32,000 bases of DNA. It comes from Nitrosospira multiformis ATCC 25196 (GTDB lineage: Bacteria; Pseudomonadota; Gammaproteobacteria; Burkholderiales; Nitrosomonadaceae). Positions 1-3,000 of this stretch are shown here, piece after piece. The position numbers were made by a program. Numbering within the stretch: position 1 is the first letter of the stretch; the number at the start of each line of letters is the position of its first letter. The stretch covers positions 1,080,001 through 1,112,000 of the forward strand of contig NC_007614.1 in NCBI RefSeq assembly GCF_000196355.1, written 5' to 3'.

Positions 1-3000
1 GCTGATTTAAGGGGAAGCTGCGAGATAATGACGAATTGATGCGTCTCGATTTGGTATTGGTTGAGCTGGAAGAAAACAGAGGGTAGCTCTAATTCCCTAG
101 TGGGAATCTTTCTTCTTTTTGATGGAGATATATAAACAGTATCGTCTACACTTTGAACCCTAAGGCAATCCAGCGAATATGAACTATGGCATGAACGAGG
201 CAAGTTCTTGGCGTAGCGCTTGCAAGCTTCAGGAAACTCTGAAAGCAGTTATTATCACTCAGTAGGCCGGAGATCAATAATTTGTCGAATAAAGGGGAGA
301 TAGTTGAATTGAATCACTACTTGTAGGCGAGGCCGCATTTTAATTTTAGAAATTTAATAAAACTAAATAGCCGTGACAGTGGCCCTCATGCTTTCGTCCT
401 TCTTACAGTCCTGGAGCAGAAATACCCCTAGCAGGCGCCTTTTATCTTCAGGGGAAAAGGCCCGGATTTTTTGCTTATATCTCCGATTGAAATTCAAAAT
501 TTTTTCGCTGATATACCTATCTAGGTTAATCATCAAGTGATCATCTGTACAAAAGGAATACGTGTTACCCCATCCTCTAATAGTGCTACTAACCTCATTT
601 AGCGCATCCTTGTAAGTAGTTTTTTCGTTTATGCATCGGAGCGGACTACTGGATTTTTTAATAACCTTGTCAAATATTTCATTCACACGATCTCTAAGTC
701 TTTTTATGCTCTTATCAGAAGGACGAATGCGGTCAGGTCTTACACTACATCCTAGAAATTCAAATCCTTTATTGGATACCCCATGCTCAGCCTTATCGGG
801 AGAGTGACGAGGGTCATATACACTTAAGTTTAGTTTTTCCAAGAAAGCTGATGCGCTAGCAAAGGCTTTAAATGCTTTTGATTCACTTGGTGCAAACAAA
901 ATGAAGTCGTCGATATATCGGATACAGACGATGCCTCGGGCATTCATTTTTTTATCAAAATCATCTAAAAGCAAATTGCAAAGTACGGGAGAAAGGCAGG
1001 AACCTTGAGCAACACCTTTTCCTTCCAATGGAAAAAGTTCCTTGTCACGGCCTAAGGTTATAAGATTACTCAACTCTGTTGTTGTTGCTTGAGTTAACAA
1101 CGTATTGAAATCATCATCCTTAGATGCAGAAGTAATAATTTCTAATGCTTGTGAACGAGGAATATTATCGAAGAAGGCACAAATGTCAGTTCGAATAAAA
1201 TAGGGCTTTTCCAGGGCTGTTTTATAAGCTTTGAGAATCGCTTGAGGTACACCGATTTCTGCAATTCCGCCAAAATTAAAACCAGAGTCTAATTTAGCTC
1301 GGACACTTGGAATTTCTTGTACAACATCTAGCAACGCTCGCTGAACAATGCGATTAGGAATGGGGGATATTACTATCGGTCGCTTTTTGCTAGGGTTATT
1401 CTTCTTCTTAACCGCGACCCCATAGCTTTGAGAAAACACGTACCGTTTTTCTCTCAACTGATCGGCAATCCGCCGAAGGTTTTTTTCTAATGAAAGGGAG
1501 AACTGCTCGATTTCAGTTCTAATTGTAGGCGATTTAGATGAAATACCGTTTTCGTATATGGACTGCCAAGCACTTCTTAGACGATTGTTACTGTACAGCT
1601 TGCGATAAAGCTCTGCCATGATTTATTTTTGTTGGGGCTCCCATCGGCAAGCAACCCACCCGCTCAAGACACTTCATCTCTCAGGCGAAACCATAAATGG
1701 CCCAGCCTGGCCTAGGCACGTATTGCGTGCTTCGGCGTCCTCGTAACATTGTGCGGCTCCACCAGCTGGTGGCCCGCTAAGCACTAAAACCGAGACGATG
1801 ACAGCTAAGCTGTACAACCACTTCCGTAAAGCACGGCTGGCACGTTTTTGCTTGCGGTCTTTATCCTCATTGCCGTCTCCAATTCTATCGTTTTTGACTG
1901 CGTTGGCAACCGCAAGTTAGCGTCGCCCTCCCCCAGAAAATAAGTCCTTCAACCGTCCGATGAGAGCCTCTATAAGGCTTTGCTCCGGTTAACTTTACAT
2001 CATCTGAGCTTGGGCTGCATCTCTCAGGCGAAACCATAAATGGCCCAGCCTGGCCTAGGCACGTATTGCGTGCTTCGGCGTCCTCGTAACATTGTGCGGC
2101 TCCACCAGCTGGTGGCCCGCTAAGCACTAAGACAAGGGATTTTCCAATTATAAGGTACAGTTAGTGTCTGTGCTTGAAATTAATGCACATCTTATTACTT
2201 TTGTTTACCCAGGCTAGTCGAACTAACGCTGCATATAGTTATGACAGTACTCCAAGTAGCCATAATCTACTTGATGTAATGAGATTATTAGTGAGCCTTC
2301 AATTTATTGTTATACGAGAGTGGGGGTGAAAATGTAGGTAGCCGAAAGAATCCAAAAAGAATTCTTTAAAAAATATCAACTTACATTATTTTTTGGCGGA
2401 GAGAGAGGGATTCGAACCCTCGGTACGGTTTGACCCGTACGCACGCTTTCCAGGCGTGTACCTTAAACCACTCGGCCATCTCTCCTGTTGAGGGTTCCAG
2501 GAAAGGAACCCGGCAAAGGGCGCAAAGGATACACCAGAACGCTATCCCCGGCAACTTTACGGTAGTATAGCCGAAAGCGGCTCATCCGTATCGACGGCCC
2601 TTGAATCCTTTGACTCAAAAAACCAGAAACAGGAAGTAGCATGCAGATCAAATCCCGCATCCGCACCATCGCGCATTATCCCCATGAAGGCATCATGTTT
2701 CGTGATATCACCACTTTGCTGAAAGACCCGGTGGGGTTGCGCGCGACTATTCAGGAAATCGCCAGCCGCTACAAGAGCATGAAAATCGATAAAGTGGCTG
2801 GAATCGAGTCACGCGGCTTCATCATTGGCGCGCCGGTTGCCTACGAGCTTGGTGTGGGATTTGTGCCGGTGCGCAAGAAGGGCAAGCTGCCTGCCGAAAC
2901 GCGGGGGCGCGATTATCAGCTGGAATATGGCAGCGACCGCATCGAGATTCACGTGGATGCGATTCAGAAGGGCGACCGGGTGCTGCTGGTGGATGATCTG

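Follow-up and report, generated by a model that had tools for sequence, protein, structure and literature searches.

Near the start of the 32,000-nt stretch of Nitrosospira multiformis ATCC 25196 DNA analysed here (the window), an intact ORF at 363..1619 on the minus strand encodes a 418-aa reverse transcriptase (RT) with motifs RT0 to RT7 and a thumb, and without an En domain, just as the original prediction had described it. The YIDD active site of RT5 (Y235 I236 D237 D238) occupies nt 906..917 of the same strand, read from 917 down to 906, and is invariant in 30/30 aligned members, while the two other motifs named in that prediction are found at residues 205–211 (QGSCLSP) and 348–354 (RGWGNTY, for the RGWxNxY-like thumb). 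Pfam returned RVT_1 with an E-value of 5.7e-22 and a weak match to GIIM (thumb/maturase) over residues 334–383. The protein is exactly identical to ABB74237.1 (WP_011380282.1) of N. multiformis ATCC 25196, which is labelled "retron-type reverse transcriptase" in GenBank, and it has 649 homologues; chance is excluded by this identity and by the number of homologues.

ABB74237.1 is the query by which Park et al. (2022) defined the G2L4 family, and it had served as a reference sequence before that (Simon and Zimmerly 2008). Judged by its sequence, the RT thus belongs to G2L4 as the original reference member of that family. The suggestion of G2L4, made from the active site and with reference to a 2022 paper in Cell, was therefore right and agrees with the literature, in which YIDD in place of YADD is the distinguishing motif of G2L4, but the accompanying view that the family assignment was open does not hold, since the locus is itself the family reference. 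The best relatives of solved structure are the G2L4 structures 9D5X and 9D4S from Pseudomonas aeruginosa (253 bits, E-value 4e-74, full length), with residues 1–405 of the window protein aligning to residues 1–409 of the 411-aa crystallised protein, and a BLASTP comparison with the P. aeruginosa G2L4 RT gave 39% identity over the full length (E-value 8e-84). The next-best match after the G2L4 structures is a group II intron RT with 70 bits.

It is extremely unlikely that the gene was left behind by a decayed mobile group II intron, or that it encodes an RT of the retron or DGR type misjudged from its motifs, and we regard this reading as already refuted by the profile scores, the Rfam search and the structure comparison. 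The top NCBIfam match is indeed the group II intron RT/maturase model TIGR04416, which together with the weak GIIM match could point to an intron origin, but it scores 146 bits where the cut-off is 300, and the 47 bits of the retron St85 RT model likewise fall short of its cut-off, which is 235. No Rfam model for group II intron RNA matched at gathering thresholds in the 32-kb window, or at E≤5 in a separate search with intron models over positions 1–2700, in line with the absence of an intron noted from the sequence. The ORF is not located in an intron domain IV, no catalytic domains V and VI accompany it, and it is a member of a large family of intron-less homologues of similar length. Nor is there a retron-clade RT with an msr/msd bounded by inverted repeats, as the repeats upstream of the gene are direct. 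With the RTs of mobile group II introns (GsI-IIC RT, PDB 6AR1; 7UIM), for which basal activity in microhomology-mediated end joining (MMEJ) has been reported, the protein shares the RT0–RT7 fingers and palm, the RT2a and RT3a insertions and the thumb (X/maturase), but it has YIDD instead of YADD and comes without ribozyme, DNA-binding domain or endonuclease domain.

Directly upstream of the RT gene, on the RT strand, lie two long direct repeats (LDRs) of 119 nt each which are 98% identical and contain palindromic hairpins. The proximal LDR2 (1672..1790, minus strand) is separated from the RT start codon by a leader at 1620..1671 (minus strand; 48–116 nt in related loci), and from the distal LDR1 (2015..2133, minus strand) by a spacer of 224 nt (1791..2014, minus strand), which measures 207–244 nt in most loci and shows conserved blocks when aligned. 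The published G2L4 pattern is a pair of LDRs of ~140 bp with a spacer of ~240 bp, at most 1 kb upstream of the RT and associated with ~70% of the genes, and the LDR-spacer-LDR layout expected of G2L4 is present at the window locus. When 80 related loci were compared, LDR pairs were found in 52/71 of those with enough upstream DNA. The original prediction had called the RT free-standing, which is correct in that intron, effector and fused domain are lacking, but it missed this leader; with a repeat pair directly upstream on the same strand the gene is not a bare ORF. Both the RT as a G2L4 member and the LDR pair are already known, because the protein is a reference member of a described family and the repeats match the published LDRs.

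The LDR is a structured RNA module without an Rfam match, with a conserved multi-hairpin fold of three helical regions. RNAalifold gave no structure for the full set of 48 LDRs aligned with MAFFT, because this alignment shifts the register; the fold was obtained from a 15-sequence subset followed by a covariance model, which hits LDR1 at 2015–2138 with 80.9 bits and LDR2 at 1672–1795 with 75.7 bits. The 23 pairs of the fold are 87–90% paired, compared with 69–71% in shuffled alignments (0/500 shuffles were as high) and 33–59% in slid controls, and compensatory changes are seen at 17–21 of the pairs. [quoted passage not shown] A comparison by eye with a relative whose RT gene has 82% nucleotide identity gives seven substitutions in the LDR, which are in hairpin loops or at unpaired positions. 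ORFs of 47 and 80 aa run across the LDRs and were considered as proteins, but the covarying stems and loop substitutions fit better with an RNA structure.

The spacer contains conserved signals that would separate the two repeats into different transcripts, although the transcript boundaries given here for P1, T1 and P2 are predictions from sequence. Downstream of LDR1, at 1936..1995 on the minus strand, an extended hairpin with a U-rich tract after it (ACUUAUUUUC) forms the putative intrinsic terminator T1 of an LDR1 transcript. A U tract is present in 44/48 spacers, at spacer position 58–94 and mostly at 62–79, and in 30 of the 44 it lies no more than 3 nt beyond a hairpin with a folding energy between −10 and −29 kcal/mol, in most cases of −15 or stronger. 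Covariation is also seen in the core helix of T1 (GC:24/AU:19 and AU:23/GC:12). The spacer further contains a predicted σ70-type promoter, P2 (TTGCCA-16-TAGAAT, 10/12 match; 1882..1909, minus strand), of which the −35 TTG and the −10 TA are at least 90% conserved across 45 spacers. It is followed by a conserved leader block at 1838..1880 (minus strand), recognised in the spacer alignment and composed of GGAG, an ATG (1870–1868) and the motif GCAAAAACGUGCCA (1851–1838). The third-codon positions of GCAAAAACGUGCCA are conserved too, and the in-frame short ORFs end at variable places, so that its function lies, in part at least, at the nucleic-acid level. We rejected a spacer-encoded protein (Shine-Dalgarno sequence, ATG, C-K-N-V-P), as the stop codons vary (10–68 codons) and nothing beyond the motif is conserved. 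Upstream of LDR1, the putative promoter P1 (AGCACA-16-TATAAT; 2147..2174, minus strand) has a weak −35 and a −10 which ends 13 nt before LDR1; σ70-like matches of at least 9/12 are found just upstream of LDR1 in 28% of the loci, compared with 2% of the control windows. The same region was inspected for a general LexA box, which was rejected with only isolated canonical boxes found (L017 and L076). A CACA-N6-TGTG palindrome is enriched upstream of LDR1 (10/63 loci, with ~1.3 expected).

The two LDR copies undergo concerted evolution. Copies within a genome are 94–100% identical (median 99.2%), whereas identity between genomes is ~53%, and in sister loci the LDRs are 13–24% apart with both copies changed together. 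At least nine loci have a single LDR and no spacer, and one (L033) has three. One explanation would be that the repeats are the footprint of copying by the RT, either with reverse-transcribed LDR2 RNA faithfully overwriting LDR1, as in a non-mutagenic diversity-generating retroelement (DGR), or with LTR-like regeneration of both copies from a single template when the element moves. The high identity within genomes, the variable LDR number and the presence of the cassette in differing genomic sites are all compatible with this, and the order of repeat, ~230-nt spacer, repeat and RT resembles the VR-TR-RT arrangement of DGRs, in which two direct repeats of ~120 nt that stay similar are likewise found a few hundred nucleotides apart and immediately upstream of the RT. 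Against it, the direct repeats lie 340 nt apart, and ordinary gene conversion or unequal crossing-over between them accounts for their homogenisation as well as for the loci with one or three copies; in the very close relatives L020 and L024, moreover, LDR copies resemble their orthologues more than their paralogues. The RT gene is not flanked by the LDRs, which therefore cannot be equivalent to the LTRs of a whole element, and G2L4 prefers DNA substrates in vitro. For these reasons we consider copying by the RT very unlikely as the origin of the repeats. The mutagenic variant, with DGR-like repeats, was rejected, as the 39 mismatches between LDR copies have no adenine bias and no ORF ends in LDR1; unlike in DGRs, there is also no target gene and no Avd-like gene, and the RT falls outside the DGR clade. 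In a related proposal, which we consider improbable, the RT itself would keep the two copies of the RNA module, one in a P1-LDR1-T1 small RNA and one in a P2-LDR2 leader, nearly identical by reverse-transcribing LDR RNA and faithfully replacing the other copy, or it would make LDR cDNA that participates in repair. Should the RT indeed maintain LDR identity, G2L4 would be a still-working retroelement with an RNA template and not only a DNA-repair polymerase.

The cassette is situated in an AT-rich island next to a tRNA gene, as was noted originally: GC content is 0.37–0.43 across the RT, compared with 0.52–0.62 for the host genes on either side, and tRNA-Ser(GGA) (2394..2485, minus strand), which is outside the cassette itself, marks the border of the island. 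Genes for AlpA and a Toprim/DUF3987 primase are located in the same island past the window start, and this tRNA-flanked setting matches the low-GC, horizontally acquired context expected of G2L4. The absence of coding sequence downstream of the RT gene was likewise borne out, with no ORF longer than 43 aa in 1–362; of the terminator-like hairpin placed at 92–120, a hairpin followed by a T-run is seen at 92–107 on the plus strand. The 3' tail of the cassette extends over 284..362 (minus strand), as homology to the closest relative stops ~79 nt past the stop codon: the alignment of L085 (RT with 91% nucleotide identity) with L081 reaches position 11336, equivalent to window position 284. Towards the 5' end of the cassette, the contigs of the closest relatives break off within LDR2. 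The genes downstream of the cassette vary among relatives, and of the proteins encoded in the N. multiformis island, the primase and those of 298, 98 and 89 aa have no counterpart in any of the 80 loci, with AlpA matched in L044 only. Adjacency to tRNA genes is sporadic (9/60 loci, in five of which the tRNA gene is at most ~300 nt from the cassette), and a search for an attR copy of the 3' end of tRNA-Ser gave no match of 12 nt or longer within 10 kb.

Defence genes, too, would fit into an AT-rich island of this kind, next to a tRNA gene and with AlpA and a P4-like primase, and the RT might be an anti-phage defence RT or have a dual role. The LDR RNA would then serve as the ncRNA partner or the template, like the ncRNAs of retrons, DRT2 or DRT9, and cDNA would be made on infection. 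A structured, covarying ncRNA directly upstream on the RT strand, a horizontally mobile cassette in variable contexts and PADLOC hits with RT_UG17 and further DRT models agree with this, and a recent preprint reports the involvement of PPRT, another group II-like RT fusion, in phage defence and the DNA-damage response. The PADLOC score is however at the superfamily level: the best model, RT_UG17, gives 142 bits over 429 positions, which equals the generic RT models. This match is explained by UG17 being the former G2L3, which is likewise a group II-like RT without an intron, but forms a separate clade in which the alanine of YADD is replaced by valine, while YIDD is unique to G2L4 according to Toro and Nisa-Martinez. 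A defence role has been tested for some of the UG groups, and a member of UG17 or another DRT group would combine a family-level profile match with an effector or fused domain. At the window locus the NCBIfam models Drt2, Drt3a, Drt4 and Drt5, as well as the retron models, all score far below their cut-offs, the RT aligns with the 411-aa G2L4 protein from end to end and, with the Pfam matches, leaves no room for a fused domain, and there is neither an effector gene near the RT nor a neighbour conserved across loci. Moreover, the characterised orthologue shows DNA-repair phenotypes and acts on DNA substrates, and on this evidence a function in defence is unlikely.

That orthologue, the G2L4 RT of P. 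aeruginosa AZPAE12409 (WP_034031052; PDB 9D5X/9D4S; Park et al. 2022, 2025 preprint), has been reported to support DNA-damage survival and MMEJ, with a modulating effect of the LDRs. It resembles the N. multiformis protein in length, domain order, YIDD, RT3a insertion, acidic residue 182, R191 and thumb aromatic pair, and its gene also lies in low-GC, horizontally acquired DNA and is preceded, on the RT strand, by two direct repeats with a spacer between them. The proteins are however only 38–39% identical, and the function of the window RT is extrapolated over this distance; the LDRs and spacer of 119 and 224 nt compare with 133–141 and 238–358 nt in the sampled Pseudomonas loci. Besides YIDD and the acidic residue 182, the window protein retains V123, R78, V205 and F360, and R191 is present. 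Changed here and across its branch, although described as conserved and mechanistically important in P. aeruginosa, are R190 (to G), S24 (to N) and S29 (to K), and the same is true of D31 (to P), R35 (to T) and I202 (to G). The RT3a insertion is two residues shorter (7 aa vs 9 aa); of the residues assigned to the active-site plug in P. aeruginosa, E182, R191, L198 (I200 in P. aeruginosa) and V203 (V205 in P. aeruginosa) are kept next to the R190G and I202G changes, a pattern shared by most of the branch. In the serine-rich loop of the N-terminal extension and RT0, S28, S30, R34 and E38 are kept, next to the S24N, S29K, D31P and R35T changes. With these residue changes and the shorter RT3a insertion, auto-inhibition by an RT3a plug, and the exact way in which the template is bound, may not be the same as in the P. 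aeruginosa enzyme.

By homology with that enzyme, it is highly probable that the N. multiformis G2L4 cassette encodes an RT for MMEJ repair which is modulated by LDR RNA. Once a double-strand break has been resected, an RT dimer would bind its 3' single-stranded overhangs, the N-terminal extension/RT0 loop and the thumb would anneal very short microhomologies, and the gaps would then be filled by Mn2+-stimulated DNA polymerase activity, with the isoleucine of YIDD favouring strand annealing over ordinary primer extension. The overall process would be analogous to MMEJ by Pol theta: like the human enzyme, P. aeruginosa G2L4 is reported to carry out MMEJ of resected breaks and to have terminal transferase and translesion activities, whereas Pol theta is an A-family polymerase-helicase fusion of a fold family unrelated to RT. 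The cassette of ~1.9 kb would have the order P1 - LDR1 - T1 - P2 - leader - LDR2 - RT, with the RT mRNA beginning at P2 within the spacer and carrying LDR2 as a structured RNA in a 5' UTR of ~255 nt, and with LDR1 as the core of a small RNA of its own, ~200 nt long and ending at T1. The LDR RNA most likely binds or modulates the RT, as intron RNA does with an intron-encoded RT.

The G2L4 family already has a name, a function demonstrated in a related host and crystal structures, and the gain for N. multiformis is mostly a correct annotation of this locus. New with respect to the G2L4 literature consulted are the covarying and strand-specific fold of the LDRs, the spacer promoter and terminator which would give rise to a small RNA on one side and an mRNA leader on the other, the concerted evolution of the LDR copies and the recurrent one-copy derivatives, which we offer as hypotheses on the role of the LDRs. 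Should the LDR RNA turn out to serve the RT as ligand, regulator or template, a repair enzyme seen as "domesticated" would be connected again with its origin among retroelements.

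The minus-strand ORF at positions 363-1619 encodes a protein of 418 amino acids, and its translation contains the YIDD active site (residues 235-238, nt 917-906), QGSCLSP (residues 205-211) and the RGWGNTY thumb motif (residues 348-354) at the positions originally described; Pfam searches matched RVT_1 (E 5.7e-22) and, weakly, a maturase/thumb domain. The claimed absence of an intron also held, with a tRNA and an unrelated riboswitch as the sole Rfam matches over the 32-kb window and no group II intron family found in a permissive Rfam scan of positions 1-2700. The 3' flank is noncoding as claimed, lacking ORFs longer than 43 aa in the 362 nt past the stop codon, and the hairpin reported beyond the 3' end of the gene was found with a T-run at 92-107 on the plus strand. 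The AT-rich setting beside a tRNA is equally real, as the GC fraction is 0.37-0.43 over the RT gene versus 0.52-0.62 in the adjoining host genes, and a tRNA-Ser(GGA) gene is located at 2394-2485(-). The original observation is confirmed.

The original prediction favoured the group II intron-like 4 (G2L4) family while calling the assignment open, and an exact-sequence look-up closes the question: the protein is identical to ABB74237.1 / WP_011380282.1 of Nitrosospira multiformis ATCC 25196, which served as BLASTP query for collecting the G2L4 family (Park et al. methods, bioRxiv 10.1101/2022.03.14.484287). The original class consisted of two proteins of 415-418 aa (Simon and Zimmerly 2008), and YIDD had already been given as its unique mark (Toro and Nisa-Martinez 2014). 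The top solved-structure match was the "Group II intron-like 4 reverse transcriptase" 9D5X/9D4S (E 4e-74, 253 bits, residues 1-405 versus 1-409 of the structure), compared with 70 bits for the second-ranked structure, a group II intron RT, and BLASTP against the Pseudomonas aeruginosa G2L4 RT gave 39% identity (E 8e-84). The NCBIfam group II intron RT model scored 146 bits (cut-off 300) and the retron and Drt models scored far lower, and it is next to inconceivable that the gene is a remnant of an intron, retron or DGR. The best named PADLOC match, RT_UG17 (142 bits), arises because UG17, the former G2L3 group, is according to the literature likewise group II-like. The window RT is thus a G2L4 RT, as the leading original idea had it, and indeed the reference sequence of the family.

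Features listed in a 2025 structure preprint (PMC11761039) were checked in an alignment of 30 family members. YIDD, R78, V123, V205 and F360 are invariant, residue 182 is acidic in 29/30 members (E in the window RT), and R191, S28, S30, R34 and E38 are retained in the window RT. In contrast, several residues described as conserved for the P. aeruginosa enzyme vary in the larger branch containing the window RT: R190 is Gly in the window RT and in 26/30 members (window residue range 182-203), S24 is Asn in 21/30 (window residue range 24-38), and S29, D31, R35 and I202 are variable among the 30 proteins, while all but the Pseudomonas protein (29/30) have an RT3a insertion shorter by two residues. 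G2L4 membership of the window RT is not in doubt, but for this branch the finer points of the auto-inhibitory RT3a plug and of contacts to the template strand should be carried over only with caution.

The description of a free-standing RT was correct in that there is no intron, but it overlooked two 119-nt long direct repeats (LDRs) directly 5' of the gene on the same strand, at 1672-1790 (LDR2) and 2015-2133 (LDR1). These are 98% identical, start 343 nt apart, and each holds palindromic hairpins such as CCACCAGCTGGTGG. This is the same layout as described by Park et al. (bioRxiv 10.1101/2022.03.14.484287), who found about 70% of G2L4 ORFs preceded by two palindromic LDRs of ~140 bp, ~240 bp apart, with a 20-fold higher LDR read depth in the RT-sense orientation, and reported that LDR co-expression "modulated" DNA-damage survival at unchanged protein level. 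The object is therefore already known: it is the family's reference RT together with an LDR leader that had been described before.

A scan using one genome per species yielded 80 loci with a G2L4 homologue, and self-comparison of the 1.5 kb upstream of the RT identified an LDR pair in 53 of these, or in 52 of the 71 loci with 600 nt or more of sequence upstream. LDR length is 108-194 nt (108-146 nt in the majority). Spacers range from 207 to 244 nt in most loci and from 345 to 358 nt in most Pseudomonas loci, and 48-116 nt separate the proximal LDR from the RT start codon. G+C is consistently higher in LDRs and spacers than in the RT gene. Locus labels include Proteobacteria, Acidobacteriota, Nitrospirota, Bdellovibrionota, Dehalococcoidia and others, and the range of G2L4 may be wider than the Proteobacteria-only distribution in the G2L4 papers, MAG binning errors being possible. 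Homologues, most with LDR pairs, were seen in loci L007, L021, L025, L029, L047, L049, L053/L055 and L057-L073, with labels also including Zixibacteria, Saccharibacteria and Bacteroidota (again subject to possible mis-binning), and a Mesoflavibacter MAG has two G2L4 copies. All four retrieved short-read contigs with this RT or its two nearest relatives (L082, L083, L084, L085) start inside LDR2 (first 85-170 nt), which points to repeat-induced assembly breaks; these may also be behind most family matches being on contigs of 1.4-3 kb, and they hide the LDR region from metagenome surveys.

Between genomes the LDR sequence is poorly conserved (mean column identity 37%, no invariant columns), and an RNAalifold consensus was obtained from a 15-sequence subset, after which the outer stem of its 3' hairpin was added. 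Its 23 pairs are formed in 87.2% of cells versus 71.4% in column shuffles (0/500 as high) and 36-59% in slid controls, with compensatory changes at 17/23 pairs. The sense strand gives the better structure, since the antisense strand reached only 76.8% paired cells, and 45 G.U cells compare with 9 A.C cells. A covariance model from this subset matched on the RT strand only, and every match with E<=0.1 is directly 5' of an RT gene; in the 71 aligned matches 89.6% of cells are paired versus 68.6% when shuffled, with compensatory change at 21/23 pairs, figures biased towards the structure because the alignment was fitted to the model. These comparisons indicate that the LDR forms a structured RNA in the RT-sense orientation. 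No Rfam family matched the LDR. In the close relative L085 the LDR is 100% identical to that of the window and the RT gene 91%, and in L084 the values are 93% and 82%, with the seven LDR changes, sequences read side by side, placed in hairpin loops or unpaired positions.

LDR copies within a genome share 94.2-100% identity (median 99.2%, n=54), versus a median of 52.6% across genomes, and in sister loci both copies are altered jointly: in L061/L062 the two copies of either locus are 100% identical and each of the four cross comparisons gives 86.7%, with L030/L054 (100/100 versus 77%) and L057/L071 (100/100 versus 76%) behaving similarly. Homogenisation is episodic, since the orthologous LDRs of the very close loci L020 and L024 resemble each other more than the paralogous ones do. 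At least nine loci (L022, L028, L014, L016, L010, L036, L037, L039 and L059) have one LDR, ~60-260 nt 5' of the RT, and no spacer. The lone LDR of Paraburkholderia retains the LDR1-type upstream flank (TTCTGGTATCAATA...) of its two-copy relatives, and the single-LDR state therefore looks like recurrent deletion between repeats, which would bring the RT under the putative promoter P1 preceding LDR1. Conversely, locus L033 of a Bdellovibrionales MAG (3021-3902) enlarges the usual LDR-spacer-LDR array to three LDRs and two spacers, all identical (a 506-nt repeat of 100% identity). Recombination between LDRs explains all these identity and copy-number patterns. A copying cycle of the LDRs driven by the RT is a distinctly improbable alternative, as recombination suffices and no observation requires RT copying; the 39 LDR1/LDR2 mismatches showed no adenine bias.

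Alignment of 45 spacers revealed an extended hairpin in the 5' part with a covarying core helix (GC:24/AU:19 and AU:23/GC:12), and a U-rich tract follows the hairpin in 44/48 spacers, within 3 nt of the stem in 30 of those 44; in the window this terminator-like element (T1) spans 1995-1936(-). A predicted σ70 promoter is located ~35-45 nt further on (-35 TTG and -10 TA at least 90% conserved), represented in the window by P2 (TTGCCA-16-TAGAAT, 1909-1882(-), 10/12 match), and is followed by GGAG, an ATG and the almost invariant motif GCAAAAACGUGCCA (window 1838-1880(-)). In the ATG frame this motif reads C-K-N-V-P, with ORFs of 10-68 codons and no conservation past the motif; its third-codon positions are conserved too, and a hairpin with a downstream GGCACG is common, and the block may act as RNA, as a leader peptide or in both ways. 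Just 5' of LDR1 or a lone LDR, σ70-like promoters (≥9/12) were found in 28% of loci versus 2% of control windows, and the putative P1 of the window (AGCACA-16-TATAAT, minus strand) ends 13 nt before LDR1. From these signals we infer the cassette order P1-LDR1-T1 followed by P2-leader-LDR2-RT, in which the first part would give a small RNA of ~200 nt and P2 would drive an RT mRNA with an LDR module in its 5' UTR, consistent with the published LDR read-depth peak. Operator-like palindromes over P1, within 100 nt 5' of LDR1 or the lone LDR, were noted in L017, L076, L010 and L016, including a canonical LexA box (CTGTATATAAAGACAG, L017 region 3980-4000) and an alphaproteobacterial-type GTTC-N7-GTTC box (L076); CACA-N6-TGTG (up to one mismatch) occurs in 10/63 loci versus ~1.3 expected, with only a partial match in the window. 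Such palindromes would be consistent with regulation of the cassette by DNA damage.

Past the window start, on the RT-downstream side (L081:11771-17285 of the N. multiformis locus), the island goes on with genes for an orphan protein of 298 aa, AlpA, a protein of 98 aa and a Toprim/DUF3987 primase of 818 aa. Within 10 kb there was neither a called integrase nor a repeat of the tRNA-Ser 3' end, and the island resembles what is left of a satellite or integrative element. Its genes do not accompany G2L4 in other loci, save one AlpA match in L044. Different genes follow the two closest RTs, and homology to the closest relative stops 79 nt past the RT stop codon, which argues that the conserved unit is a cassette of ~1.9 kb (roughly 284-2175), excluding the hairpin at 92-107. 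This agrees with the suggestion that G2L4 is an independently mobile element (Park et al., bioRxiv 10.1101/2022.03.14.484287). Elsewhere in the window, a guanidine-I riboswitch aptamer (7459-7562(+), 90 bits versus a gathering score of 63) is upstream of and on the same strand as genes for an amino-acid permease, two DUF1989 proteins and a biotin-carboxylase/carboxyltransferase, resembling a urea or guanidine carboxylase-like operon.

By homology, the RT would most likely act in Pol-theta-like microhomology-mediated end joining with the LDR RNA as a modulator; G2L4 identity together with this general role is highly probable, and a role of the cassette in defence, alone or in addition, is unlikely. 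The RT itself is a re-encounter with the known reference G2L4 member, and the comparative analysis of the LDRs is the only part which adds to the G2L4 literature (Park et al. as preprint).
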